The translations under genes and the position numbers were made by a program. Below are positions 169 to 12,220 of a stretch of 12,220 bases of DNA, one piece after another. Under the pieces are notes generated by a model, which had not been told where the DNA came from, made no database searches, and saw only the letters and a list, made by a program, of their open reading frames with translations. Source of the stretch: an uncultured Gemmatimonadales bacterium (GTDB taxonomy: Bacteria; Gemmatimonadota; Gemmatimonadetes; Gemmatimonadales; GWC2-71-9); assembly GCA_963771275.1 (NCBI GenBank), contig CAVYSW010000001.1, positions 1 to 12,220 on the forward strand, given 5' to 3'. Within the stretch, counting starts at the first letter, position 1; each line of letters opens with the position of its first letter.

Positions 169-202
169 CTGTCATTCCGGCGTCATCGAGCGATCCTAGG
201 CT
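169..202 (+). promoter_or_regulatory. Activator box (CTGTCATTCCGGCGTCAT, 169-186) + 10-bp spacer + -10 hexamer TAGGCT (197-202); promoter of the two-component operon
   Basis: GTCAT direct repeat with 11-bp period. The same geometry recurs at three other gene starts. The ATG lies 7 nt after the -10. Confidence 0.8.
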
Positions 203-209
203 GGCAGCC

Positions 210-899
210 ATGCGGGTTCTGGTCGTGGAAGATGAAATCGAGATTGCGGATCTCCTGGCCCGCGCGCTGCACGACATCTCCTGGGCGTGCGACGTGGTCG
301 CGACGGGCGGCGCGGCGCTCGAGGCCGTAGCGGTCACGGAGTACGATATCGTCGTGCTCGACCTCGGTCTACCCGACATGGATGGGCTCGAGGTGTGCCA
401 CCGCTGGCGCGCGCGCGACGTCCGGACCCCGATCCTCGTGTTGACCGCGCGGAGTGGCCTTGACGATCGCGTCACAGGTCTCGACGCTGGTGCCGACGAC
501 TACCTCGCCAAACCGTTCGCCATCGAGGAGCTGCTCGCCCGCCTGCGGGCCTTGCTCCGCCGCCCGTCGTCAGCCCAGGCACCGCTCCTCCGGATCGCCG
601 ATCTGGAGCTCGACCCCGCGACCCGGTGCGTCCGGCGGGCCGGTGAACCCCTCCGCCTCACCGCCCGCGAGTACGCCCTGCTCGAGTACCTGCTCCGCAA
701 TCCCGGGCGCGTGGTGACCCGCGCACAGATCCTCGAGCACGTGTGGGACGACAACTTCGATCCCGTCGCGAACGCGGTGGATGTGCTGGTCGGGCGCGTC
801 CGACGCAGGATCGAGTCTCCGGACGGCACGCCGCTGATCCACACGATCCGCGGCGCCGGATACGTGCTGTCCGAGACCGAGCCGCCCAATGCCGTTTAG
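210..899 (+). CDS. OmpR/PhoB-family DNA-binding response regulator (CusR/CzcR-like clade)
   Basis: Receiver motifs MRVLVVEDE, VVLDLGLPDMDG (phospho-Asp), LTAR, GADDYLAKPF. Winged-helix motifs LTAREYALLEYL, VWDDNFDPVANAVDVLVGRVRRRI, IHTIRGAGY. Confidence 0.97.
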   Translation: MRVLVVEDEIEIADLLARALHDISWACDVVATGGAALEAVAVTEYDIVVLDLGLPDMDGLEVCHRWRARDVRTPILVLTARSGLDDRVTGLDAGADDYLAKPFAIEELLARLRALLRRPSSAQAPLLRIADLELDPATRCVRRAGEPLRLTAREYALLEYLLRNPGRVVTRAQILEHVWDDNFDPVANAVDVLVGRVRRRIESPDGTPLIHTIRGAGYVLSETEPPNAV

Positions 900-2253
900 T
901 CGCCTTCGGCTCCAGATCGCGCTTCGGTTCGCGGCGGCGGTGCTGATCGCCGCCGGCGTGGTGGACTTCGGCCTTTCCGCCTACTTGCGGCGCGATGCGG
1001 ATGCCCGGCTCACCCGCGACCTACAGGCAGCCGCGCGAGGGCTCCGCGACGCCGTTCTGCGGGAGGCCCAGGAGACCGGCATTACGCAGGCCCAGGCGGT
1101 GCACGACGCCCTGGAGGAATGGCCGGCGGGCCCGACGGCATTCGCGGTGTTCGGCGCCGACCGCGCCCGGCTTGGTGCAGTCGGGCCCGGGGAGCCGCAG
1201 CGTCTGCTGCGTCTGCCGGTAGCGCCAACGCCGGGCACGGTGCGGACCTATCCGTTGGACGACGAAGGCGACCTGCGCACGGTGGTGGACGGCGACACCG
1301 TCCCACCCCGTCTCTGGATCATCGCCGCCCGTTCGACCGCCGAGCTGCGGGAGCATGAGGAGCTGCTGACCGGCTGGCTCCTGCTCAGCGTACCCGGCGT
1401 CGCGCTGTTCTCGCTCCTCTCGGGGTACTGGCTTGCGCGGCGCGCCTTGCAGCCCCTGCGTGACACGGCCGATGCCATTGAACGGATCGCGCCCGACGAC
1501 CTCCACCGTCGCCTTCCGGTGCGGACCCCGCCTGACGAGATCGACCGCCTCGCCGACCGGTTCAACGGCCTGCTGGAGCGCCTGGCGCAGGCACGGGACC
1601 GCAATCGCACGTTCTTGGCACGCGCGGCGCACCAGCTCAAAACCCCACTCACGGTCGTCCGCGGAGAGAGCACCCTCGGCCTCGAGCGCCCGCGTGACAA
1701 CGATACGTACCGCGCCGTCCTCGAGCGCATCCGGCGCGCGGCGGACCAGATGACGCACCGCGTGGACGACCTGTTTCTCCTGGCTCAGGCCGAGGCCGGC
1801 GATCAGCCGCCCATGCAAGATGCGGTCGAGCTCGACGGCCTCGCCCTCGAGTGCGCGGACCTCATGCGTGGCCGAGCGCAGCGGGCTGGCCGCTCCTTGG
1901 AGCTGGACCGGGTTGAAGCGGCGCTGGCTCGTGGCAACGAGCCCCTGCTCCGCGAGGCCGTGCTGGAGCTGATCGAGAACGCGGTGAGGTACGGTGGCCC
2001 GGAGCGCCCCATCCGCGTGTCGGCATACTGCGAGCACGACCGGGCGCACCTGGCCGTGTTGAGCGCGGGTGGGCCCATTCCCGAAAGCATCATGGGGCCG
2101 CCCGCCCGGCAGGAGGAGGGATCTGGTCTGGGGCTCTCCATTGTCGCATGGATCGCGCGCGTGCACGGGGGGAAGCTGGCCTACCGCCATGCCGACGAGA
2201 CCAACACCCTGCAACTGGTCTGGCCCGTGCCAGGCCCAGCGAGCAGCGGGTAG
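889..2253 (+). CDS. Membrane sensor histidine kinase (2 TM, periplasmic domain, HAMP, HisKA, HATPase_c)
   Basis: Two hydrophobic segments, HAMP (LQPLRDTADAIERI...DEIDRLADRFNGLLERL), H-box AAHQLKTPL, N-box ELIENAVRYG, G2 GSGLGLSIV. Overlaps the regulator by 11 bp. Confidence 0.95.
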   Translation: MPFSRLRLQIALRFAAAVLIAAGVVDFGLSAYLRRDADARLTRDLQAAARGLRDAVLREAQETGITQAQAVHDALEEWPAGPTAFAVFGADRARLGAVGPGEPQRLLRLPVAPTPGTVRTYPLDDEGDLRTVVDGDTVPPRLWIIAARSTAELREHEELLTGWLLLSVPGVALFSLLSGYWLARRALQPLRDTADAIERIAPDDLHRRLPVRTPPDEIDRLADRFNGLLERLAQARDRNRTFLARAAHQLKTPLTVVRGESTLGLERPRDNDTYRAVLERIRRAADQMTHRVDDLFLLAQAEAGDQPPMQDAVELDGLALECADLMRGRAQRAGRSLELDRVEAALARGNEPLLREAVLELIENAVRYGGPERPIRVSAYCEHDRAHLAVLSAGGPIPESIMGPPARQEEGSGLGLSIVAWIARVHGGKLAYRHADETNTLQLVWPVPGPASSG

Positions 2254-2283
2254 GACCCCCAGGGTTCATCCCCCGAGGGGGTC
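2254..2283. terminator. Possible hairpin between convergent genes
   Basis: GACCCCC (2254-2260) is complementary to GGGGGTC (2277-2283) in the 44-bp gap between two stop codons. No U-tract on either strand. Confidence 0.3.
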
Positions 2284-2297
2284 TCACCACCGTCAAC

Positions 2298-2897
2298 TCA
2301 GCGTCCCGTCTCCTGCTTCACGGGGCTCACAGCACCCGTCATGGCATTGATCGTGACGTGCCAGACCCCTGGACGGCCGGGAACGGTGAGCGAGAAGGAG
2401 TAGGTCAGCGTCCCACTCTCTTCCTCCAGCTCCGCCTTGGTGATCGTGCCGTTGGGGACGGCCGCGCGCGCCAGGGTTCTCGCGCTGTCCCCGGAGATCT
2501 TGGCCCGTGCCGCGAGACCCGGATGCTCCTCCACGATCTGCACGGCTCCAGCAGCTCCCGACTCCTCGGCGTTCTCGCGTTCGACGGGCGCGACCTGGCC
2601 CGTGACCGCGTCCACGTTCACCTCGAAGATGCCCGGCTGCCCGGGCACGCGGAGATCGAACGAATAGATGAGCTTACCGTTCTCTTCTTCGATCTCGGCC
2701 GCCGAAATCCGCCCCTTCGGCACCGCCTTCCGCGCTAGCACGATCGCGCTGTCGCCCGCCACCTTGGCGCGGGCCATCAGCCCCGGCGTTTCCTCTTTGA
2801 TCGTGACGCGGGTGCCCTGCTGCTGGGCCCAGGCGGTGGCCGGCGCACCTCCCACCACCACTGCCGCGGTGACGACCATCAGCTTCATAGCCCTCAT
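2298..2897 (-). CDS. Secreted protein with two tandem PepSY-like domains
   Basis: Signal peptide ending AWA|QQQ, upstream GGAGGA. Two repeats with the PepSY pattern (A..LARxAVP.G.I..AELEEE.G.L.YSF.L......V.(V/I)(D/N)A.TG.V). Confidence 0.88.
   Translation of the reverse strand: MRAMKLMVVTAAVVVGGAPATAWAQQQGTRVTIKEETPGLMARAKVAGDSAIVLARKAVPKGRISAAEIEEENGKLIYSFDLRVPGQPGIFEVNVDAVTGQVAPVERENAEESGAAGAVQIVEEHPGLAARAKISGDSARTLARAAVPNGTITKAELEEESGTLTYSFSLTVPGRPGVWHVTINAMTGAVSPVKQETGR
2310..2807 (-). repeat. Intragenic tandem duplication: aa 31-108 (nt 2807-2574) and aa 119-196 (nt 2543-2310)
   Basis: Ungapped manual alignment gives 47/78 identical residues. Confidence 0.9.
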
Positions 2898-2940
2898 TGC
2901 TCCTCCGTGGGTGGAAGCCCGGTCCGGTCCCCATCCACCA

Positions 2941-2974
2941 AGGCTACCGCCGGCACATGACAGACTCCTGACAG
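2941..2974 (-). promoter_or_regulatory. Activator box (CTGTCAGGAGTCTGTCAT, 2974-2957) + 10-bp spacer + -10 TAGCCT (2946-2941); promoter of the PepSY gene
   Basis: Perfect CTGTCA direct repeat at 11-bp period in a 100-bp intergenic gap, same geometry as the other three. Confidence 0.82.
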
Positions 2975-2997
2975 TGGCGCGGTGAGAAACGCCGACA

Positions 2998-3936
2998 TCA
3001 CTTCGGGAACGAGAGCATCATGCCAATCTGGGGTGCCCAGTCGGTGGCCTTGGACGAGATCCCGACCGCGTTGTCGAGCTTGAAGAAGAGGAAGTCCGCA
3101 ATGCGCCAGTGCGTGCCGAGGACGAGGTCCCACTCGTCCGGCGCGCCGGTTTCACCGCCCTCAACTCCGAAATACACGCGCCAGGAGGGTGACAACCGCT
3201 TGAGGTATTCGAGGGAACTCTCCCCGAGATCGAGATGCTTGTTGTCATGATTGTACTCTACGGTGGTGCGAAACGTCATCGTGCCCCAGGAAAACCCCCT
3301 CACGATGCCGATGCCGGGCTTGAAGTCCCACTCTGAAGCGCCGATCAGCACTTTCGTCTTCTGCGACGGAGGCGTCACCTCCAGGAACCCGAAGAGGCCG
3401 GGGCGATGGTCACCCTCCCGCATCACATGCATGCGAAGCTGTCCCTCGATGTCTCCCAGCCCCGATTCCTCGATTCTCGCCGGCATGGCGGACGGGTCGC
3501 TGGGCGACCTCTCGAGTGTAGCGCGCACGAAGCCTGCCTCGAACTCGAGCGCGAGCCAGTCGGTCAGGCCGTAGGCGACGAAGATCAGAGCCTCGGAGCT
3601 CCGGTACTTCCCGCGGAAATCCTGATCCAGTCCGAAGCCCAGCGCGGCCGGCTGGTACTCACGGTTGTTATCGAGGGAGTACGCGAAGAACGGGTGGACC
3701 ACCAGCTGGCCTCGGCCGATGTAGGTCCCGAACAGCGAGGCTGGGACGCCGGCGCCTCGGTCCGTCAGATACCTCGGCAGGGCACCGTCCTGGCCCGCGA
3801 CCGTGCCGGGCAGACCGGCCACCCCCGCGACGACGACGAACGCCCCAAGCGTGCGCCGACTCATGTGTGTGACCTGAAGCGGACGTCGCGATTCGCGGGG
3901 GTTTCGCAAGGCGCGGAAGGCCCGTAGTATGGTCAT
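2998..3936 (-). CDS. Putative outer-membrane beta-barrel, COG4313 / Phenol_MetA_deg-like 'transporter'
   Basis: Signal-like hydrophobic segment, AYGLTDWLALE and SGLGDI motifs, alternating amphipathic strands, C-terminal GMMLSF. GAGGTG precedes ATG 3936; an alternative ATG at 3864 sits nearer the signal peptide. Confidence 0.7.
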   Translation of the reverse strand: MTILRAFRALRNPRESRRPLQVTHMSRRTLGAFVVVAGVAGLPGTVAGQDGALPRYLTDRGAGVPASLFGTYIGRGQLVVHPFFAYSLDNNREYQPAALGFGLDQDFRGKYRSSEALIFVAYGLTDWLALEFEAGFVRATLERSPSDPSAMPARIEESGLGDIEGQLRMHVMREGDHRPGLFGFLEVTPPSQKTKVLIGASEWDFKPGIGIVRGFSWGTMTFRTTVEYNHDNKHLDLGESSLEYLKRLSPSWRVYFGVEGGETGAPDEWDLVLGTHWRIADFLFFKLDNAVGISSKATDWAPQIGMMLSFPK

Positions 3937-3984
3937 CTGTCACCTCGTCGTGAGTCGGCCATCCCGTGGCCGGCCGGCTGTGCC

Positions 3985-4018
3985 AAGCTATCCCGCCCAC
4001 GTGACAAGCCGGTGACGG
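3985..4018 (-). promoter_or_regulatory. Activator box (CCGTCACCGGCTTGTCAC, 4018-4001) + 10-bp spacer + -10 TAGCTT (3990-3985); promoter of the beta-barrel gene
   Basis: GTCAC direct repeat at 11-bp period with the same spacing to a TAnnnT hexamer. Confidence 0.78.
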
Positions 4019-4021
4019 ACG

Positions 4022-4055
4022 CTGTCACCCGGATGTCATGCACGCCGGCTATGAT
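4022..4055 (+). promoter_or_regulatory. Activator box (CTGTCACCCGGATGTCAT, 4022-4039) + 10-bp spacer + -10 TATGAT (4050-4055); promoter of the rightward run
   Basis: TGTCA direct repeat at 11-bp period and a -10 with 5/6 match to TATAAT. Confidence 0.83.
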
Positions 4056-4103
4056 GATCCGTTGCCCACGGGTCTTCGCTAGCCCACAACCCTGGAGGAC
4101 ATC

Positions 4104-4580
4104 TTGAAGCTACTCGCGATCACCGCCATCCTGTCCGTGGCGGGCCCCACCGGCTGGGCTGGCTTGCCGTCAACCCCCGCGCAGGATCCCCCGACCTACG
4201 CGCAGCAGCTCGTCAATCAGATGGTCGCCGCTCACGCGGAGCTGGCGGCAATGGAGCTGGCGCTCCAGTTGACAGAGGGCTGCAAGACCGTCGCCGCAAC
4301 CGCTGCGGAGGACATCGGCGAGAAATGCGACGACGACGAGCTGGGGCCCATCCGCACCGGCGAGCCCGACGTGGAAGAGCCGACCAAGGACGACCCCGTG
4401 TACGACATCACGCAGGCGCTCCACGACAGCGCTGGGAACCTCATCGGGGCGGTGGGCATGGACCTGAAGCCCGCGCCCGGGAAGGACCGGGCGGCGATGG
4501 TGGCCCAGGCTCGAGCGATTCTGCATGAGCTCGAAGCGCGGATCCCCTCGAAGCAGAAGCTCCTGGAGCCGGCGTCGTAG
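4104..4580 (+). CDS. Secreted acidic protein, probable stand-alone Cache/PDC (periplasmic PAS-like) domain
   Basis: GGAGG at 4094-4098 before a TTG start, signal peptide. YDITQALHDSAGNLIGAVGMDL resembles the terminal beta-hairpin of Cache/PDC domains. The CDS is well supported; the fold call is by eye. Confidence 0.65.
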   Translation: MKLLAITAILSVAGPTGWAGLPSTPAQDPPTYAQQLVNQMVAAHAELAAMELALQLTEGCKTVAATAAEDIGEKCDDDELGPIRTGEPDVEEPTKDDPVYDITQALHDSAGNLIGAVGMDLKPAPGKDRAAMVAQARAILHELEARIPSKQKLLEPAS

Positions 4581-4693
4581 CCGCGGCATCTTGTGGGCGG
4601 CGGGGGTGGCATAGGGCTCGCGTGGTCGCCTTCCCCGTGACCGCAGCGTAGAATACGGCCGACCCCTCATCCGGCGGCGCCGGAGCCCACGTC

Positions 4694-5971
4694 ATGATGC
4701 TCGCGCTCCTTCTCATCGCTCGCGGACTGCTGCCGCAAGGTCCGCAGGACTCGCTCACCCTCGACGCCGCGCTCGCCCTGGCGCGGGCGCACCGCGGACA
4801 GGTGGCCATCGCGGCCGCCGTGGTCGCCGCCGCCCGCGCCGAGCGGCGGGTGCTCCTCTCCCTCCCCAACCCCACGGTCTCATACTCCTACACGGGCGAC
4901 CCGCCGCGCCAGCACGCCACCGTCGACCAGCCGCTGGACTGGCTGCTGCGCCGCGGCAGTGAGGCCGTCGCGGGACGCGCTGGCATCGGCGTGGCGCTGG
5001 CCGATTCCACCCGTCTCTTGGCGGACGTCGCCCGCGAGGCGCGGAGCGCGTTCTACACGGCGCTCGGCGCCACGCGTCGACTCGCGCTCGCCGAGGATGA
5101 GGCCGCCCTCGCCGACTCGCTCGCGGCCATCGCCGCGCGGCGCCGGGCAGCGGGCGAGATCCCCGAGCTGGAACAGGCCCAGGCCGCGCTCGAAGCCGCC
5201 CGGGCGCGGCAACTCGTCTCCGCCAGCCGCGAGGACCATGCGCTGGCGGCCGCCGAGCTGGGCCGGGCGCTGGGCGTGCCGCGCGAGTCGCTGCCCGCGC
5301 CGGCCGGCGCGCTCGATCGGGAGCTTTCGGCAGTAGCGCCGGCCATGCCTCCGGCGGAGGAGCTCCCCATGGTCGTGGCCGCGCGCGCCGACTCCACCAT
5401 GGCGCGCGCGGTGTATCACGCCGCACAGTGGAGCCGGGTTCCGTTCCCGTCCGTGCAGGCCGGTGTCGAATGGAACGACCCCACCAACCCGACGGCCGGC
5501 TCCACCGTGCTGCTGGGCCTCTCCCTGCCGCTCCCGCTGTGGCAGAGCGGCGGCGCATTCACCGCCGCCGCGCGGGCCCGCGCCGACCAGGCGGCGGCCC
5601 AGCTCCGCGAGGTGCGGGCCGATGCCGCGCGGCTCCTCGCACAGGCGGCCACGCGCGTGCGGGAGACGGCGCGACGCGCCCTCGTGGCGCGCGATTCCAT
5701 TCTCCCGCTCGCCACGCGGCAGCGGGAGCTCGCGCTCGTCGCGTACACGGCCGGCGAGACCGGGATCGTGCCCGTGCTCGACGCGCTCCGGGCGGAGCGC
5801 GAGGTGGTGCGCGATCTCGTGAACGACCTCGTGGCCTACCAGGTGGCGCGGGCGGACTGGCTGGGACTGATCGGCACGACGAATGAGGTCCGGACTCTCA
5901 GGCTACGGCAACGTGGAGCCGAACGATGGATAGACGGCGGGCAGTGGCGAGCCTCGTTGCCGCCGCGGTGA
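4694..5971 (+). CDS. TolC/OEP-family outer membrane efflux protein
   Basis: Signal peptide then SLTLDAALALA. Two OEP repeats (RRRAAGEIPELE / AYTAGETGIVPVLDA), GLSLPLPLW strand. Directly upstream of MFP and RND genes. Confidence 0.92.
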   Translation: MMLALLLIARGLLPQGPQDSLTLDAALALARAHRGQVAIAAAVVAAARAERRVLLSLPNPTVSYSYTGDPPRQHATVDQPLDWLLRRGSEAVAGRAGIGVALADSTRLLADVAREARSAFYTALGATRRLALAEDEAALADSLAAIAARRRAAGEIPELEQAQAALEAARARQLVSASREDHALAAAELGRALGVPRESLPAPAGALDRELSAVAPAMPPAEELPMVVAARADSTMARAVYHAAQWSRVPFPSVQAGVEWNDPTNPTAGSTVLLGLSLPLPLWQSGGAFTAAARARADQAAAQLREVRADAARLLAQAATRVRETARRALVARDSILPLATRQRELALVAYTAGETGIVPVLDALRAEREVVRDLVNDLVAYQVARADWLGLIGTTNEVRTLRLRQRGAERWIDGGQWRASLPPR

Positions 5972-6993
5972 TCGTGGCGGCGCTCATCGCCCTCAGGCTG
6001 AAGGGCTCCGGAGCTGGAGACGAGGCGGTCGTCACGGACGTCGCCGTGCACGTCGGCACCGTGCAGCGGGCCACCCTGCATCGCTACGTCACCGCCTACG
6101 GTTACGTCGAGCCGGAGCCGGCCGGAGGCGGGCGCGCGCCGGGCGGCGCGCTGCTCTCCCCCATCGTCGGCGGCGTGCTGGCCGAGATCGACTGCGTGGA
6201 GGGGCAACGGGTGACGGCGGGGAGCGTGCTGTTCCGGCTCGACAGCCGGATGGCAGAGGTCGCGGTGGACAAAGCCCGGCAGCAGGTCGACTTCGCCGAG
6301 CGGGCCTTCAAGCGCCAGCAGGAATTGCTTCCCTCCAACGGGACGTCACAGCGCGCCTACCAGGAGGCGGAGCAGCAGCTCGACGCGGCGCGGAGCGATC
6401 TCTCGGCCGCGGAGACCGGGCTGGCGTATCTCCGGATCACCGCGCCGCTCAGCGGCACGGTGGTTCGGCTGAGCGCCACGGTCGGCCAATTCGTCGACGC
6501 CAACACCGTGCTGGCCGAGGTGGTGAACCTCGATCGTCTGGTCGTCACCGCCAACGTGCCGGCCCGCGAGGCCGCCGGGCTCGCGCCCGGGCTGCCGGTG
6601 TTCCTCGGCGCGGACAGCACGGCGCCGCGCGGCACTCTGCGGATCGTCGGCAAGGACATCGACCCCCGCACCGGGACGTACCGGGTCCAGGCCTCGGTGC
6701 CGGCGGGCTCCGCGTTCACCCCCGGCCAGTTCACCGACATCCGGATCGTGGCCGAGGAGCGGCCCAACGTGCTGGTCGTCCCCGAGGTGAGCCTGGTGAC
6801 GCGGGCCGGCGAGGGCAGCTGGATCATGGTCGTGGAGGGCGACAGCGCGGTGCGCCGGCCCGTCACCGTGGGAATCCGGGACGGGGGCCTCGTCGAGGTC
6901 GCGGGAGCCGGTCTGGGCGACGGTATCACGATCGTCACCGACGACGCCTACAGCCTCCCCGAGGTGACCAAGATCCGGATCGTGGGGCGCTGA
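5926..6993 (+). CDS. RND efflux periplasmic adaptor (membrane fusion protein)
   Basis: N-terminal anchor, lipoyl halves (GVLAEIDCVEGQRVTAGSVLFRLD; ITAPLSGTV), IDPRTGTYRV, FTPGQF. GGAG at 5915-5918. Confidence 0.95.
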   Translation: MDRRRAVASLVAAAVIVAALIALRLKGSGAGDEAVVTDVAVHVGTVQRATLHRYVTAYGYVEPEPAGGGRAPGGALLSPIVGGVLAEIDCVEGQRVTAGSVLFRLDSRMAEVAVDKARQQVDFAERAFKRQQELLPSNGTSQRAYQEAEQQLDAARSDLSAAETGLAYLRITAPLSGTVVRLSATVGQFVDANTVLAEVVNLDRLVVTANVPAREAAGLAPGLPVFLGADSTAPRGTLRIVGKDIDPRTGTYRVQASVPAGSAFTPGQFTDIRIVAEERPNVLVVPEVSLVTRAGEGSWIMVVEGDSAVRRPVTVGIRDGGLVEVAGAGLGDGITIVTDDAYSLPEVTKIRIVGR

Positions 6994-6994
6994 G

Positions 6995-9900
6995 ATGCTC
7001 GGGCGCCTCGCGACGCGGTCGTCCCTTTCGATCTTCTTCATCTCCATCGCGCTGTGCCTGGCCGGCGTCTACGCCGCGCTGACGCTCGCCTCCTCGGTCT
7101 TCCCGCAGACCGACTTTCCCAGGGTCGTAATCCTGGTGGACAACGGCGTCATGCCGGGCGACGAGATGATGGCCACGATCACGCGCCCGATCGAAGAGGC
7201 CATGCACGACATCCGCGGCGTCACCACGGTAAAGTCGGCCACGGGGCGCGGATCGGCCGAGATCAACGTGTTCTTCACGTGGAACGTGGACATGATCCAG
7301 TCCGAGCTCTACGTGCTGAGCCGCCTCGCGCAGATCCGCAGCACTTTGCCGGCCACCGCCGTGACGACGGTGTACCGGCTCACGTTCGCGGCCTTCCCCA
7401 TCCTGGGCGTGAGCCTGACGAGCGACACGCGCAGCATCACCGAGCTGTGGGAGACGGCGCGCTACAACCTCAAGCTGCGCTTTCTGAGGATCGCCGGCGT
7501 GGCGCGCGTGGACCTGGTGGGGGGCCGGGCGCCGGAGTACCACGTCGTGGTGGATCCCATCCTGCTCGGCGCGGCGGGGCTCAGCCTTCAGGACGTGATC
7601 GCCGCGCTCGAGGCCAACAACCTCGTGGCGTCGGCGGGGATGCACGAGGAGAACCACACCCTCTACCTCACGGTGGTGGACGGACGGGTGCGCTCCATCC
7701 GGGAGATCGAGGACTTCGTGGTGACCGCCGCCGACGGCCACCCGGTGCGGATCCGGGACTTCGCGACGGTGGTGCGGGGACCCGAGCCGGTGTTCAACGT
7801 GGTCACCGCGGACGGCCACGCCGCCGTGCTGCTCAACATCCGGAGCCAGCCGGACGGCAGCACGCTCCACATCGCGCGGGACCTCCGGCGACAGATCGCC
7901 GAGCTCCGCCAGGAGCTCCCGCCCGACATGAAGCTGGCGTTCTTTTACGATCAGTCCGAGATCGTGCGGGCGTCGGTGGAGAGCGTGTGGGAGGCCATCA
8001 TCTTCGGTCTGATCCTCTCCGTCGGCATCCTCTACTTCTTCCTCAAGAGCTGGGACACGACCCTGGTGGCGACCACCGTCATTCCGGTGACGGTGCTCAT
8101 CACGCTCGTGTCGATGAAGCTCACCGGCCTCACCTTCAACCTGATGACCCTGGGCGGGATCGCCGCGGCGATCGGCCTCGTGATCGACGACGCCATCGTC
8201 GTGGTCGAGGCGATTCACACGCGTCTCACCCATGGCATCGGCCGGGCCGAAGCCGTCGTGGCCGGGATCGGCGAGATCTTCCGCCCGCTCGTGGGGTCCA
8301 CGCTCACGCCGGTCGTCGTGTTCATCCCGCTCGCGTTTCTGCGCGGCATCACCGGCGTGTTCTTCCGGGCGCTCGCGCTGACGATGGTGGTGTCGCTGCT
8401 CACCTCGCTCGTGCTGGCCGTCACGCTCACCCCGTCGCTGGCCGCGCGGCTCACGCGGCGGCGGACGGGGGCCGAAGGGACGGCGCGGGCTGAGCTGGGC
8501 GGACCCCTGCTCCACCGCGTGATCGAGATCTACGAGCGCGCGGTCCGCCCCGCTCTTCGGAATCCCTGGCGTGTCATGGCCGCCTGCGCCCTCATCCCGA
8601 TCGCCGGGGTGCTGGTCTACGGCCAGCTGGACAGCGAGTTCCTCCCGCCGATGGACGAGGGCGGGTTCGTGATCGACTACTTCACGCCCCCCGGCACGAG
8701 CCTCCAGGAGACCAACCGCCAGCTGCTTCAGGCCGAGGCAATCCTCCGCACGGTGCCCGAGGTGGAGAGCTACTCGCGGCGCACGGGCGCCCGCCTCGCG
8801 CTGGCGATCGCCGAGCCCAACACCGGCGATTTCCTGGTCAAGCTCCGCACCAACCGCAGGCGCAAGACCGACGACGTCATCGGCGAGCTGCGGCAACGGT
8901 TCAACACCGAGCTCCCGGGGCTCAACTGGGAGTTCCCGGGCATTCTCGGCGACCTGATCGGCGACCTCATGTGGGCGCCCGCGCCGGTCGAGGTGAAGCT
9001 CTACTCGACCGACCAGGCGTGGCTCGAGCAGAAGGCGCCGGAAGTGGCCGCCCGGCTCGAGGCCATTCCGGGCGTGGTGGACCTGTTCAACGGGCTGGTC
9101 TACACCGGACCGACCATCAGCCTCCGCACCCGGGCGGCCGACGCGCGCCGGTTCGGCCTCACGGCGGACGACATCGCCAACGCCGCCAACAGCGCGATGC
9201 TCGGCCAGACCGCCTCCTCCGTGCTCGAAGGCGACCGGGTGGTGGACATCCGGGTGAAGGTGGACTCGGCCCGGATCCGGACCCTGTCCCAGATCCAGGA
9301 TCTTCCGATTCGCACGCCGGCCGGGACCCTGGTGAAGCTGTCACAGGTAGTAGACGTCGTGGAGGAACCGGGGCAGCTCGAGTTGCGGCGCGAGGACGCC
9401 CGTCAGGACGTTGCGGTGACGGCGCGCCTCGAGGGACGCGACCTCGGGAGCGCGATGGCCGAGATCCGCCAGGCGCTGAGCACCGACTCGTCGATCCCTC
9501 CGGGCGCCATCGAGTACGGCGGGCTCTACCAGCAGCAGCGGGAGTCGTTCCGCAACCTGGTGTTCGTGCTCCTCATGGCCGTCTCCCTCGTGTTCACCGT
9601 GCTGCTGCTCGAGTTCGGCTCGTTCAGCGAGCCCATCGCCATCGTGTTCGGCGCCCTGCTCGCCATGTTCGGCACGGTGCTCGCCCTATGGCTCACGGGG
9701 ACGTCGTTCAACGTCGTGTCGTTCCTCGGCGCGATCATCGGGGTGGGGATCACCGCCAAGAACGGGATCCTGATGCTGGACTACGTGCGGCACCTCAGGA
9801 GCGAGGGGCTCGATCTGGTGGAAGCCCTGGTCCGCTCCGGGCGGCGGCGTCTCCGCCCCGTCCTGATGACGTCGCTCGCCGCGGCGCTGGGGATGCTGCC

Positions 9901-10078
9901 CCTGGCGTACGGTCTCGGCTCGGGCGCCGACATGCTGCGGCCGCTCGCCATCGCCGTGATCGGCGCGCTGTGCATCTCGGTTCTGTTGTCGCTCGTGGCG
10001 ACTCCGACGCTCTACTTCCTCCTGATCCGCCGGAGCACCCCGCCCCGCGGAAGCAGCGAGACACCGGCAACGGCCTGA
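6995..10078 (+). CDS. RND efflux permease (AcrB/CusA/CzcA superfamily)
   Basis: 1027 aa with two large periplasmic loops. TM4 AIGLVIDDAIVVVE, TAKNGIL, RRLRPVLMT, PLAIAVIG motifs. Confidence 0.97.
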   Translation: MLGRLATRSSLSIFFISIALCLAGVYAALTLASSVFPQTDFPRVVILVDNGVMPGDEMMATITRPIEEAMHDIRGVTTVKSATGRGSAEINVFFTWNVDMIQSELYVLSRLAQIRSTLPATAVTTVYRLTFAAFPILGVSLTSDTRSITELWETARYNLKLRFLRIAGVARVDLVGGRAPEYHVVVDPILLGAAGLSLQDVIAALEANNLVASAGMHEENHTLYLTVVDGRVRSIREIEDFVVTAADGHPVRIRDFATVVRGPEPVFNVVTADGHAAVLLNIRSQPDGSTLHIARDLRRQIAELRQELPPDMKLAFFYDQSEIVRASVESVWEAIIFGLILSVGILYFFLKSWDTTLVATTVIPVTVLITLVSMKLTGLTFNLMTLGGIAAAIGLVIDDAIVVVEAIHTRLTHGIGRAEAVVAGIGEIFRPLVGSTLTPVVVFIPLAFLRGITGVFFRALALTMVVSLLTSLVLAVTLTPSLAARLTRRRTGAEGTARAELGGPLLHRVIEIYERAVRPALRNPWRVMAACALIPIAGVLVYGQLDSEFLPPMDEGGFVIDYFTPPGTSLQETNRQLLQAEAILRTVPEVESYSRRTGARLALAIAEPNTGDFLVKLRTNRRRKTDDVIGELRQRFNTELPGLNWEFPGILGDLIGDLMWAPAPVEVKLYSTDQAWLEQKAPEVAARLEAIPGVVDLFNGLVYTGPTISLRTRAADARRFGLTADDIANAANSAMLGQTASSVLEGDRVVDIRVKVDSARIRTLSQIQDLPIRTPAGTLVKLSQVVDVVEEPGQLELRREDARQDVAVTARLEGRDLGSAMAEIRQALSTDSSIPPGAIEYGGLYQQQRESFRNLVFVLLMAVSLVFTVLLLEFGSFSEPIAIVFGALLAMFGTVLALWLTGTSFNVVSFLGAIIGVGITAKNGILMLDYVRHLRSEGLDLVEALVRSGRRRLRPVLMTSLAAALGMLPLAYGLGSGADMLRPLAIAVIGALCISVLLSLVATPTLYFLLIRRSTPPRGSSETPATA

Positions 10079-10099
10079 CCATCACCGGGAGGTGACCCA

Positions 10100-11155
10100 A
10101 TGAGACGATACCATCGACCCCACCTGACGCTGCTGCCGGCGCTGGCACTCGCAATCGCGGTCGGCACCGTGTCCCTGGCCGCCCAAACGCCCACATACCG
10201 ATTCATCAGAGAAATCACGGTGGGCGGCGAAGGTGGCTGGGACTATCTCGCCGAGGACGCCGCCGCCCACCGGCTCTACGTCAGCCACGGCACGAAAGTC
10301 GTCGTGATCGACATGGCGCAGGGCACGGTAGTGGGGGAGATCGACAGCCTGCCGGGCGTGCACGGGTTCGCGGTGGCCCCCGAGCTGGGGCTCGGGTTCG
10401 CGAGTAACGGCCGAGAGAACACGGCGGCCTTCGTGGATCTCAAGACGCTCGCGGTCACCAGGCGGGTCGCGACGGGCGAGAACCCCGACGCCGTCCTCTA
10501 CGTCCCGGGCTTCCAGCAGGTCTACACGTTCAACGGCCGCGGCCATTCGGCCACGGTAATCGACGCCAAGACCGGCGCGGTGGTCGCCACGATCCCGCTC
10601 CCGGGCAAGCCCGAGTTCGCCGTGTTCGACCCGGCGGCCGGCCGGATCTACAACAACATCGAGGATCAGAACGAGATCGTCGCGATCGACGCCAAGACCC
10701 ACGCCGTCGTCGCCACCTGGCCGATCGCTCCTGGCGAGGAGGCGTCGGGTCTCGCAATCGACCTGGCGCACCACCGGCTGTTCGCCGTCTGCGGCAATCA
10801 GTACATGGTGATGCTGAACAGCACGACCGGCGCGGTGGTGGATACGGTGCGGATCGGGCAGGGCGCCGACGCGGCGCGGTTCGATCCGGCGACCGGCCTC
10901 GCGTTCGCCTCCAATGGCGAGGGCACGGTGACGATCGCCCATGAGGAGTCTCCCGACCACCTCGAGGTGATCCAGACCCTCACCACGGTCCGGTCGGCCC
11001 GCACCATGACGCTCGACCCCACGACCCACCGGATCTACCTCTCGGCCGCGACGTACGAGGCGCCATCGCCGGCCGACTCGGCGACTCCCCGCCAGCGCCC
11101 GCGGATGGTGCCGGGATCGTTCCGGGTGCTGGTGTACGGGATCGACGAGCGGTAG
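10100..11155 (+). CDS. Secreted YncE/YVTN-like beta-propeller protein
   Basis: GGAGGTGA RBS, signal peptide (SLA|AQ), GGEGGWDYL. Repeated blades (VIDAKTGAVVATI, AIDAKTHAVVATWPI, HRLYV/HRLFA/HRIYL). Confidence 0.88.
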   Translation: MRRYHRPHLTLLPALALAIAVGTVSLAAQTPTYRFIREITVGGEGGWDYLAEDAAAHRLYVSHGTKVVVIDMAQGTVVGEIDSLPGVHGFAVAPELGLGFASNGRENTAAFVDLKTLAVTRRVATGENPDAVLYVPGFQQVYTFNGRGHSATVIDAKTGAVVATIPLPGKPEFAVFDPAAGRIYNNIEDQNEIVAIDAKTHAVVATWPIAPGEEASGLAIDLAHHRLFAVCGNQYMVMLNSTTGAVVDTVRIGQGADAARFDPATGLAFASNGEGTVTIAHEESPDHLEVIQTLTTVRSARTMTLDPTTHRIYLSAATYEAPSPADSATPRQRPRMVPGSFRVLVYGIDER

Positions 11156-11164
11156 GCGATCGCG

Positions 11165-11923
11165 GTGAGCGAGCTCGCGCTGCACGGCTGGGCCGTCCGC
11201 GCCGAGCTCGCGCTCGCCGCCGTCACGCTGGTTGCGCTGCTGTTCGTGGCGGCGCCGTACGGCCGCTACGAGCGCCGAGGCTGGGGCCCGACGCTGCCTG
11301 CGGCGCTCGGCTGGATTCTGATGGAGCTGCCGGCGGTCGCGCTGTTCGCCGTGTTCTTCTTTACCGGCGACCACCGCTTCGAGGTGGTCCCCCTCGTGCT
11401 GCTGGGCGTGTGGCAGCTCCACTACCTGAACCGGGCGTTCGTCTTCCCGTTGCGCATGCGCGCGGGGGGACGCAGGATGCCAGTGCTCATCGCGTTCCTG
11501 GCCATCGGCTTCAACACGCTGAACGCCTACGTCAACGCCCGGTGGATCGGGCACTTGGGAACCTACCGGAGCGCGTGGCTCGCGGACCCCCGCTTCCTGC
11601 TGGGCGCCACGTTGTTCCTCGCCGGATGGCTCGGGAACCTCCATGCGGACGCCGTCCTGCGGCGCCTCCGGCGGCCCGGCGAGACCGGATACGAGATTCC
11701 ACGCGGGGGCCTCTACCGCTGGGTCTCCGCGCCAAACTACCTGTGCGAGATGCTCGAGTGGAGCGGCTGGGCGGTCGCCACCTGGTCGACGGCCGGCCTT
11801 GCCTTCGCCGTCTATACGGCGGCGAACCTCGGGCCGCGCGCCGTCAGACACCACGCCTGGTATCGGGAGCGGTTCGCCGACTATCCGGCGGAGCGCAAGG
11901 CCTTGATTCCCGGTCTACTCTGA
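11165..11923 (+). CDS. Steroid 5-alpha-reductase-like membrane enzyme (3-oxo-5-alpha-steroid 4-dehydrogenase; SRD5A/DET2 family)
   Basis: APYGRY, WILMELPA, HYLNRAFVFP, LRRLRRPGETGYEIPRGGLYRWVSAPNYLCEMLEWSGWA, HHAWYRERF.DYP..RKALIP. GTG start. Confidence 0.92.
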   Translation: MSELALHGWAVRAELALAAVTLVALLFVAAPYGRYERRGWGPTLPAALGWILMELPAVALFAVFFFTGDHRFEVVPLVLLGVWQLHYLNRAFVFPLRMRAGGRRMPVLIAFLAIGFNTLNAYVNARWIGHLGTYRSAWLADPRFLLGATLFLAGWLGNLHADAVLRRLRRPGETGYEIPRGGLYRWVSAPNYLCEMLEWSGWAVATWSTAGLAFAVYTAANLGPRAVRHHAWYRERFADYPAERKALIPGLL

Positions 11924-12220
11924 CCGAACGTACTTCGCCTTCAGCTCGTCATACACCGTCATACGGTCGGTGACGTTACCCTCCCGGTCGAACAATCCGC
12001 TCCTCCAGCCGAGGGGCTCCCAGATCGCCGTTCCCTTCCCCAGGTCGTTGGGGAGGTCGAACACGATGTCGTTGACCTCTCGCTTGACATCGGAGTATTC
12101 CACGACGTTGACCGGCTTGCGATAGCGGTCGATCAGGTCATGGAGGTTGCCGTAGAGGTCCTCGAGGGTGCCGTGCCAGCGGGGATAGTACGACAGGCCG
12201 ATGATGTCGAACTTGACGCC
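11915..12220 (-). CDS. C-terminal part of a glycoside hydrolase family 53 protein (arabinogalactan endo-1,4-beta-galactosidase-like); 5' end outside the window
   Basis: The frame is open from 12220: GVKFDIIGLSYYPRWHGTLEDLYGNLHDLIDRYRKPVNVVEYS...GTAIWEP. SYYPxWHG and KPVxVVE (nucleophile) are GH53 hallmarks. Overlaps the preceding gene's end by 9 bp. Confidence 0.85.
   Translation of the reverse strand, partial: GVKFDIIGLSYYPRWHGTLEDLYGNLHDLIDRYRKPVNVVEYSDVKREVNDIVFDLPNDLGKGTAIWEPLGWRSGLFDREGNVTDRMTVYDELKAKYVRSE

Follow-up and report, generated by a model that had tools for sequence, protein, structure and literature searches.

A candidate self-contained envelope-stress regulon that joins a PepSY-associated sensor pair to a propeller-bearing RND pump operon in a Gemmatimonadales genome

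BaeSR, CzcRS and CusRS are two-component systems that control resistance-nodulation-division (RND) pumps, and the BqsRS/CarSR regulon includes CarO and the periplasmic propeller CarP. Pumps under two-component control and pairs of a kinase with a PepSY protein are each known, and the route by which the state or substrate of a pump reaches the kinase is mostly unknown. According to the papers cited here and below, the PepSY protein DbfQ binds the kinase DbfS and sets its activity, PepSY/kinase neighbourhoods being more than 60 times as frequent as chance would give and the PepSY-plus-two-component modules including some with the PepSY gene on the opposite strand (PMC12714742); the kinase BqsS needs an RExxE motif for Fe2+ sensing, the HExxE of PmrB being mentioned too (PMC4358008); an ExxE-type motif is needed for Fe3+ and Zn2+ sensing by ColS (PMC4074579); and soluble or anchored PepSY proteins bind metal, LanP binding Ln3+ and UipA UO2(2+) and Fe3+, the latter adjoining the two-component system UipRS in Microbacterium (PMC9988556, PMC8963506). 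Here we analyse a stretch of 12,220 nucleotides (the window) with which contig 1 begins in the 3.86-Mb (3,860,783 bp), 96.7% complete genome of an uncultured Gemmatimonadales bacterium, in which a sensor pair stands beside genes for a secreted tandem-PepSY protein, an outer-membrane beta-barrel and an RND pump whose operon also encodes a secreted 158-aa GAF/PAS-like protein (the GAF-like protein) and a YVTN-type beta-propeller. The cluster is real, co-regulated and partly conserved. We consider it fairly probable, reading its functional steps from gene context, that it is a self-contained envelope-stress regulon composed of the sensor, the PepSY protein, the barrel and the pump with its accessories, and we infer its function to be the sensing of cation or envelope stress coupled to efflux.

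Gene layout and the shared promoter box

Gene families were called by Pfam and NCBIfam scans together with a table of the open reading frames (ORFs) of the window, whose G+C content is 65-76%. L-numbers denote related loci, in which our ORF calls are crude and detection of outer-membrane factors by tblastn is insensitive, P-numbers denote proteins or protein clusters, and G-numbers genomes sampled from the phylum. The features of the window are as follows.

170..202, plus strand: predicted promoter P1, serving the regulator and kinase genes (TGTCAT-N5-CGTCAT, 11 nt, TAGGCT)
210..899, plus strand: response regulator of the OmpR/PhoB family (Response_reg 93.3 bits, Trans_reg_C 92.9 bits)
889..2253, plus strand: sensor histidine kinase (HAMP, HisKA, HATPase_c)
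2298..2897, minus strand: secreted tandem-PepSY protein, 199 aa (PF03413, two stretches, 76.5 bits; signal peptide ending AWA/Q)
2941..2973, minus strand: predicted promoter P2 of the PepSY gene (TGTCAG-N5-TGTCAT, 11 nt, TAGCCT)
2998..3867, minus strand: predicted outer-membrane 12-stranded beta-barrel, FapF/COG4313-like in fold (312-aa ORF at 2998-3936)
3985..4017, minus strand: predicted promoter P3 of the barrel gene (CGTCAC-N5-TGTCAC, 11 nt, TAGCTT)
4023..4055, plus strand: predicted promoter P4 of the GAF-like gene and pump operon (TGTCAC-N5-TGTCAT, 11 nt, TATGAT)
4104..4580, plus strand: secreted 158-aa GAF/PAS-like protein (from an AlphaFold2 (AF2) model; without Pfam match)
4694..5971, plus strand: outer-membrane factor (OMF) of the TolC family (OEP, 100 bits, two stretches)
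5926..6993, plus strand: membrane-fusion (periplasmic adaptor) protein, MFP (TIGR01730, 182.4 bits against a cut-off of 94.9)
6995..10078, plus strand: RND inner-membrane transporter (Pfam and NCBIfam)
10100..11155, plus strand: secreted YVTN-type beta-propeller (TIGR02276; conserved C-terminal RPxMVPGSF tail)
11165..11923, plus strand: membrane reductase of the steroid 5-alpha-reductase family, SRD5A (PF02544, 170.7 bits against 22.6)
11915..12220, minus strand: 3' part of a gene of family GH53 (arabinogalactan endo-beta-1,4-galactanase), cut by the window end

Since the PepSY and barrel genes lie on the minus strand, the cluster comprises four transcription units and not one. The preliminary description of this DNA had listed secreted accessory proteins, an outer-membrane channel and a tripartite pump, tightly packed from 4694 onward, and both statements hold: the gene set is confirmed by the Pfam and NCBIfam scans and the AF2 models, and from the OMF through the MFP, RND, propeller and SRD5A genes the spacing is a 46-bp overlap followed by gaps of 1, 21 and 9 bp. 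The GAF-like gene lies 113 bp 5' of the OMF gene; within this gap (4581-4693) a TAGAAT at about 4650 could be a second pump promoter, and no terminator is predicted there. Over the window as a whole, the terminator scan gave four terminator-like sites against 3.7 expected, and a sigma-70 scan was likewise uninformative. The GH53 gene converges on the SRD5A gene and overlaps its end by 9 bp.

The window contains four copies of GTCA-N7-GTCA where 0.38 would be expected, none of 200 shuffles had as many as four, and a TANNNT lies exactly 11 nt 3' of each copy. The composite GTCA-N7-GTCA-N11-TANNNT is found four times in the whole genome, always within the window (171-202 and 4024-4055 on the plus strand, 2941-2972 and 3985-4016 on the minus strand), and the reversed control pattern is not found at all, which bears out the shared promoter motif claimed previously. 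One copy lies 5' of each unit, the targets being the regulator gene, the PepSY gene, the barrel gene and the GAF-like gene that heads the pump operon, and the consensus reads YGTCAY-N5-YGTCAY with the -10 hexamer 11 nt later. Judged from these promoters, the genes of the cluster are co-regulated, under a motif unique to the cluster within its genome. The tandem repeat occupies the usual -35 position, and because it does so in the arrangement described for BqsR, we regard it as a candidate class II activator site. The -10 of P1 (TAGGCT, 197-202) ends 8 nt ahead of the ATG at 210 and no Shine-Dalgarno sequence intervenes, so that the transcript of the regulator gene may have little or no leader; the regulator promoter of L050 has a spacing like that of P1 (box at 1995, ATG at 2033).

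Outside the window, the motif with a spacer of N10-12 is present in only six copies in 100 related loci (1.40 Mb). Two of these are divergent and lie between the PepSY gene and the 158-aa gene of L009; two with a 12-nt spacer precede a 158-aa homologue (L023) and a PepSY-fused homologue (L026); the remaining ones belong to the regulator gene of L050 and to L042. A box also stands just 5' of the regulator gene of L048, which is 67% identical to that of the window, and a second box in L050 stands before the PepSY gene, as in the window and L009. In Acidobacteriota the half-site differs (TTCA-N7-TTCA-N7-NTCA), with four copies in L012, two in L018 and one in L020, each of which precedes a 158-aa homologue, an OMF-MFP-RND(-propeller) operon or, in one case, an unknown ORF. 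That two lineages have different boxes and the same wiring is the strongest evidence that these kinds of gene belong together.

Two side observations concern the surroundings of 158-aa genes in Acidobacteriota. A family without Pfam match lies beside them in L012 (8615-9802) and L013 (9067-9789; 33% identity over 194 residues), the L012 copy having its own TTCA triple box upstream. In L015 (9700-9976) a 158-aa homologue lies behind TTAAG-N6-TTAAG, the published BqsR-type box, followed by TATCCT, and no sensor genes were seen within the available DNA around it.

Recurrence in other bacteria and protein fusions

We found 20 loci with the 158-aa family, several of them cut by contig ends, and identified their genes by tblastn with the window proteins and by Pfam. 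Sensor genes are present in six of the 20 (L009, L011, L012, L018, L020 and L024), an RND gene in seven (the same six and L021), the propeller in six (L014, L018, L020, L024, L028 and L013, in the last about 7 kb from the 158-aa gene) and the barrel in one (L016), and PepSY lies next to the 158-aa family or is fused with it in L009, L010, L014 and L026, and so it probably does in L011. The propeller was found in 63 loci, of which the 58 with a match covering at least 45% of the query were used for counts. An RND gene lies within 8 kb in 28/58 and an RND or MFP gene in 32/58, and in 14/58 the propeller gene directly follows an RND gene in the same orientation; sensor genes are present in 14/58, PepSY in 5/58 and the barrel in 1/58. 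As a rough control, an RND gene was found in 0/15 barrel loci. The record titles of pump-linked propellers name Gemmatimonadota, Acidobacteriota, Verrucomicrobiota, Planctomycetota and Proteobacteria, among others. Aminicenantes loci (L064 and L066) are also represented among the propeller loci. The neighbourhood comparison called for in the preliminary description thus confirms co-occurrence elsewhere for the sensor, RND, propeller and PepSY genes; SRD5A does not recur and the barrel does so only occasionally.

Fusions give a second view of the same associations. PepSY is joined N-terminally to the GAF-like domain in P0011, P0015, P0064 and P0072 (four among the 120 relatives listed) and also in L026. 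Among longer relatives of the 158-aa protein, P0274 and P0275 are of the form GAF-like-PepSY-propeller and P0276 of the form propeller-GAF-like, and these opposite orders imply at least two fusion events. Among the 28 longer propeller relatives (E<=1e-10), five clusters (P0278, P0279, P0281, P0282 and P0283) are OMF-propeller fusions, in which the OMF C-terminal '...LIKALGGGW' is followed by 4-16 residues and then the start of the mature propeller, with no signal peptide at the joint. In L118 the OMF and the propeller are separate genes 10 bp apart, the propeller having its own signal peptide, and the pair sits 3' of a MacA-ABC-MacB pump. From such arrangements the partner of the propeller seems to be the OMF or the assembled pump rather than the RND transporter as such. 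The fusions chain together PepSY (the kinase partner), the GAF-like protein, the propeller and the OMF, and, occurring as they do in other bacteria, suggest that the helper proteins link the sensor to the pump. A complex prediction for the propeller (28-351) with the GAF-like protein (27-158) scored 0.00, where the mark is 0.32, and gave 'no answer'.

Other candidates were set aside. An apparent TonB-receptor-propeller fusion (P0284) has a signal peptide at its joint and represents adjacency at most, and P0285 runs into wrong-frame sequence and was not counted. The sequence in L028 (9818-11764) that corresponds to the L014 fusion of GAF-like, PepSY and propeller domains is interrupted by several frameshifts and a stop, and is either a pseudogene or an assembly error.

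The component proteins, a proposed mechanism and its rivals

The kinase has two transmembrane segments and a periplasmic loop of about 125 aa which bears R58-E59-A-Q-E62, an RExxE motif. In an alignment of five orthologues (window, L009, L048, L050 and L096; 39-67% identity), L45, A55, E59, E62, E77-W78-P79 and A146 of the loop are invariant, as is L160 at its C-terminal edge; E59, E62 and EWP are the sole invariant polar or aromatic loop residues, R58 being kept in four of the five. By analogy with known sensors, the invariant ExxE hints at a cation signal, short of proof. The ATP-lid region of the kinase (residues ~395-412) is short by about 9-13 residues in the window, L009, L048 and L050, the counterpart 'IF(D/E)RFYR' being present in the L011 kinase and three Acidobacteriota kinases, and HATPase_c is matched with a modest 44.2 bits. 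The PepSY gene ends 45 bp past the kinase gene on the opposite strand, likewise in L009 and L050, where its orthologues adjoin the sensor genes. Its product is, as in modules of the DbfQRS type, a small secreted protein with a PepSY domain, and its nearest solved structure is the tandem-PepSY 9vy3 (E 1.3e-7). The isoelectric point (pI) is 5.53 for the PepSY protein and 4.41 for the mature GAF-like protein.

A search with the 158-aa protein gave 228 candidates, 145 of which are relatives at E<=0.001, most of these about 160 aa long and 55-87% identical, in records labelled Gemmatimonadales, Terriglobia, Acidobacteriota and Calditrichota, and some named 'PDC sensor domain-containing protein' by NCBI. 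Across 30 aligned sequences 27 positions are invariant, including C60, C75, D76, D78, E79, D97, D101, H107, D108 and D120. The AF2 model (predicted local distance difference test, pLDDT, 90.2) shows a PAS-like alpha/beta fold. Foldseek gave template-modelling (TM) scores of about 0.5 to GAF, LOV and IclR-type domains and DcuS, and VIA-align placed a GAF domain best (Z 11.3, root-mean-square deviation 3.2, 121 residues), with the WalK extracellular domain at Z 8.8. What had been called a free Cache domain therefore keeps its PAS-like fold and loses its family membership, for there is no Pfam match at E<=10, Cache/PDC-type families included; on the model, the fold class is shared with Cache/PDC and the sub-type leans towards GAF. 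A Protein Atlas search with this protein returned unnamed clusters only.

Within the phylum sample, G094 carries a 40%-identical paralogue with a propeller directly 3' and G016 one standing alone; a second, divergent paralogue (36% identical) lies between the RND and propeller genes of L024 (1647-2018, minus strand), and paralogues of the L024/G094 type may form a distinct propeller-coupled subfamily. Several other genes were seen near 158-aa homologues: TonB-dependent-receptor-like genes 3' of them in L012, L018 and L020 (about 10500-15100), with CarboxypepD_reg, Plug and barrel domains (in L020 without a Plug match), cupredoxin genes in L016 (8019-9868), a multicopper oxidase gene in L025 (3918-5492), and, just 3' of them in L023 and L026, large FGE-sulfatase-domain proteins and an aldehyde dehydrogenase.

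The propeller scores 43.3 bits against the YVTN repeat model TIGR02276 (cut-off 27.85) and matches the solved YVTN propeller 1l0q at E 4.6e-19. It falls below the cut-offs of PF21783 (25.6 vs 27.1), NF052280 (56.9 vs 400) and TIGR03866 (64 vs 287.3), and by these scores is outside the YncE families (the first two) and the pyrroloquinoline quinone (PQQ)-associated family (the third).

In the regulon that we propose, the phosphorylated regulator would bind the tandem repeat and, in the way of PhoB and BqsR, bring in RNA polymerase, and would thereby activate its own genes, the tandem-PepSY gene, the gene of the FapF/COG4313-like channel and the operon of GAF-like protein, OMF, MFP, RND transporter and propeller. 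From what is known of its family, the PepSY protein could partner the sensor loop of the kinase in the periplasm, in the manner of Vibrio cholerae DbfQ. The fusions suggest that the propeller may be a fourth, periplasmic accessory of the pump at the periplasmic end of the OMF, and that the GAF-like protein may cooperate with both the PepSY protein and the propeller. The weakest step is the signal. It might be too much of a hard metal cation such as Fe, Zn or Al, or harm that the cation does to the envelope, and it would be read through the invariant periplasmic ExxE of the kinase, with the acidic GAF-like and PepSY proteins binding or reporting the cation.

A number of points weigh against this proposal. 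The ExxE is short, and Glu is common in proteins of this kind. Acidobacteriota kinase loops are unlike that of the window (24-27% identity over the whole protein), and because they share so little we treat the Acidobacteriota systems as analogous and not as orthologous. The 158-aa family is rare, being present in 3/201 sampled phylum genomes, the window's own included; 8/20 of its loci (L013, L015, L017, L019, L022, L023, L025 and L027) have no sensor or pump genes in the available DNA, and it was found in 0/58 propeller loci. The five OMF-propeller clusters are closely related and possibly go back to one fusion event, and in a Verrucomicrobiota-rich set (found with P0278) only 6/25 propeller loci have a pump part. 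Two apparent kinase-propeller fusions (P0280 and P0286) have a signal peptide at the joint, are perhaps merged gene calls and were not counted. DbfQ has a single PepSY domain, whereas the PepSY protein of the window is tandem and its gene lies on the opposite strand with its own promoter. Finally, the RND transporter is by its sequence not of the heavy-metal type, which leaves a metal substrate for the pump unsupported. In BaeSR-MdtABC signal and substrate differ, and by analogy they may differ here as well.

The proposal could be extended to a relay from pump to sensor, in which the three secreted proteins would let the cell monitor its own pump, by load or by ligand, and tune the production of that pump accordingly. 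The propeller would dock on the periplasmic end of the OMF in tripartite pumps, of RND and MacB types alike, the GAF-like protein would be a sensor domain supplied in trans, and the PepSY domain would convey its state to the ExxE kinase. We offer this extension as a tentative one that we do not expect to hold in full. Conversely, the secreted proteins could be mere outputs of the regulon, periplasmic protectants or cation sponges like CarP and CarO, with no contact to kinase or pump. This would agree with each of them having its own regulator box, as for a target gene, with the GAF-like gene often standing alone and sometimes behind a regulator-type box (L023 and L026; TTAAG-N6-TTAAG in L015), with the acidity of the mature secreted proteins and with the binding of metals by LanP and UipA (PMC9988556). 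We nevertheless think it unlikely, since the fusion of OMF to propeller without a seam, and that of propeller and GAF-like domain in either order, argue for physical cooperation with the pump, and since in V. cholerae the direct partnership of a kinase with a PepSY protein encoded beside it is known (PMC12714742).

The barrel and SRD5A bear on a different reading, that of a module for hydrophobic compounds (steroids or terpenoids) in which the channel would import, SRD5A reduce and the RND pump expel. The barrel probably starts at M24 (2998-3867; alternative 3936), because the alignments with its relatives (384 representatives at E<=0.001) set in near residue 28. Its AF2 model (pLDDT 91.7; 13 strand segments by DSSP, two of them contiguous) matches FapF (5o65, E 3e-10, TM 0.57-0.63) and the COG4313 channel 4rl8 (E 8e-9, TM 0.59-0.63) in Foldseek, with an overall TM range of 0.56-0.63 and 12-14% identity. 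The earlier designation as a COG4313 barrel is therefore right for the fold, by the match of the model to 4rl8, and not for the sequence family, as there is no Pfam match of any kind at E<=10; no PDB sequence match was found at E<=10 either. The barrel recurs with the module in three places only, namely beside the 158-aa gene in L016, after the orthologous sensor genes and a GT87 glycosyltransferase in L048, and directly before the propeller in L050, from which we judge that it is not a conserved part and is only occasionally linked. SRD5A is a clear homologue of the solved bacterial steroid 5-alpha-reductase 7c83 (313.6 bits) and, starting 9 bp past the propeller gene, is probably co-transcribed with the pump operon. 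These features, the shared channel fold and an RND transporter of multidrug or amphiphile type would suit the hydrophobic-compound reading. It is nonetheless very improbable, given that SRD5A is absent from the related loci (0/20 with the 158-aa family, 0/58 with the propeller, 0/15 with the barrel), and that L009, the closest syntenic locus, where the operon ends at the RND gene, lacks both SRD5A and the barrel. On this distribution SRD5A is a passenger at the 3' end, outside the conserved set.

The L042 (2831-6067) and L048 (5825-10416) barrel homologues are followed by a DUF4345 membrane protein and flanked by GT-C type and other glycosyltransferases (PMT_2, GT87, GT4); those directly after the sensor genes of L048 hint at modification of envelope glycans or lipids.

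A heavy-metal efflux operon of Czc/Cus type with a CzcRS/CopRS-type sensor would be suggested by the best NCBIfam models of the regulator (heavy-metal subfamily TIGR01387, 218.9 bits) and kinase (TIGR01386, 164 bits) and by ZneA (294 bits) and CusA (267 bits) being among the solved relatives of the RND transporter. These subfamily scores are, however, under the curated cut-offs (279.2 and 292.55, respectively), as is that of the transporter against the CusA/CzcA model TIGR00914 (508.1 bits, cut-off 701.45). The multidrug subfamily model outscores the latter (596.9 bits, itself below the cut-off of that model), and MdtB is the nearest solved chain (326 bits; AcrB 265). Transmembrane segment 4 (TM4) reads GLVIDDAIVVVEA and carries the DD pair of multidrug pumps, from which the TM4 motif of metal pumps differs, and CusF- or CzcI-type genes are not present. 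The transporter, to which that of L009 is 87% identical, is thus on sequence grounds a deep-branching pump of multidrug or amphiphile kind, and the heavy-metal explanation has very little likelihood. Lanthanide handling by a LanP-like tandem PepSY and a PedA2-like YVTN propeller is hardly credible, for although 9vy3 is the most similar solved protein, LanP binds Ln3+ (PMC9988556) and the best NCBIfam match of the propeller is the PQQ-associated TIGR03866, that score is far under its cut-off, the genome holds no methanol/ethanol-family PQQ dehydrogenase that we could find at its 96.7% completeness, the transporter is an exporter, and the PepSY protein is less acidic than LanP (pI 5.53 vs 4.6; PMC9988556).

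Comparison with described systems

With four promoters, one box and nine core genes, the locus is a compact test case complete in itself, and its analysis defines two unnamed protein families, a highly conserved secreted GAF-like protein and a pump-linked YVTN propeller. Should the propeller indeed be a subunit of the pump, a fourth component would have to be added to the models of tripartite efflux for many soil bacteria, and if the relay exists, 'propeller-assisted' efflux pumps would make up a whole class, present in at least five phyla, that has so far been overlooked. The full-text literature that we searched, which covers few subscription journals, yields no operon that matches the cluster gene for gene, in agreement with the preliminary description. 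The iron stimulon of Bacteroidetes (PMC10434189) describes no such module, and the available part of the preprint 10.1101/2025.04.06.647434 makes no mention of RExxE, PepSY or TTAAG.

The arrangement of two-component pair next to OMF-MFP-RND operon is that of BaeSR-MdtABC, CzcRS-CzcCBA and CusRS-CusCFBA, all with an OmpR-type pair, and MdtB is the nearest RND protein; the window differs in adding PepSY, GAF-like protein, propeller and barrel under the same box, and in an RND transporter below every curated cut-off. A propeller as periplasmic accessory of an RND-superfamily transporter recalls MmpL3-TtfA, in which a seven-bladed propeller reportedly stabilises the mycobacterial lipid exporter, with no OMF. 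The match of the window propeller to the TtfA model NF048007 is weak (E 7.3e-4, 18.8 bits against a cut-off of 600), and in the fusions related to the window propeller the partner is an outer-membrane factor.

For the barrel, FapF and the COG4313 channel Pput2725 (5o65 and 4rl8) offer a barrel of about 12 strands, a similar size and an N-terminal segment ahead of the barrel, but the identity is as low as noted above, the window barrel has no Pfam match, and no amyloid (fap) or aromatic degradation genes lie near it. LanP and UipA share with the window protein a signal peptide followed by two PepSY domains (PMC9988556, PMC8963506); the window protein is less acidic and its sequence likeness is weak, and its only solved relative found, the tandem-PepSY entry 9vy3, is not necessarily LanP. 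ColRS and PmrAB, metal sensors that remodel the envelope, share the conserved periplasmic-loop ExxE (PMC4074579), and the orthologous sensor genes of L048 beside GT-C type glycosyltransferases (GT87, with PMT_2 in L042) recall lipid A modification. In the window, by contrast, the output is a pump with secreted proteins, and no lipid A modification genes were found.

The likeness to BqsRS/CarSR (bqsPQRST) of Pseudomonas aeruginosa, proposed in the preliminary description, holds in several respects: the kinase motif of RExxE type and adjacent PepSY genes, a regulator box that is a tandem repeat of 11-bp period overlapping the polymerase site or abutting the -10 (PMC4358008), and a periplasmic propeller among the targets. 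It fails for the sequence of the box, which is YGTCAY-N5-YGTCAY and not TTAAG-N6-TTAAG, and the window differs further in that its PepSY protein is soluble and tandem, its propeller is of YVTN type, an RND pump is the main output and the regulon is confined to one locus. DbfQRS of V. cholerae resembles the core: it too has a small Sec-secreted PepSY protein beside an OmpR-type regulator and kinase and regulates itself (PMC12714742), so that the PepSY and two-component part, at least, cannot be called undescribed as it was at first, a module of this kind having been published. The regulon of the window differs in consisting of four local promoters and in adding the RND pump, the propeller, the GAF-like protein and the barrel. 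The core of sensor and PepSY protein thus belongs to a known, DbfQRS/BqsRS-like kind, and it is the pump with its propeller and GAF-like partners that is undescribed.

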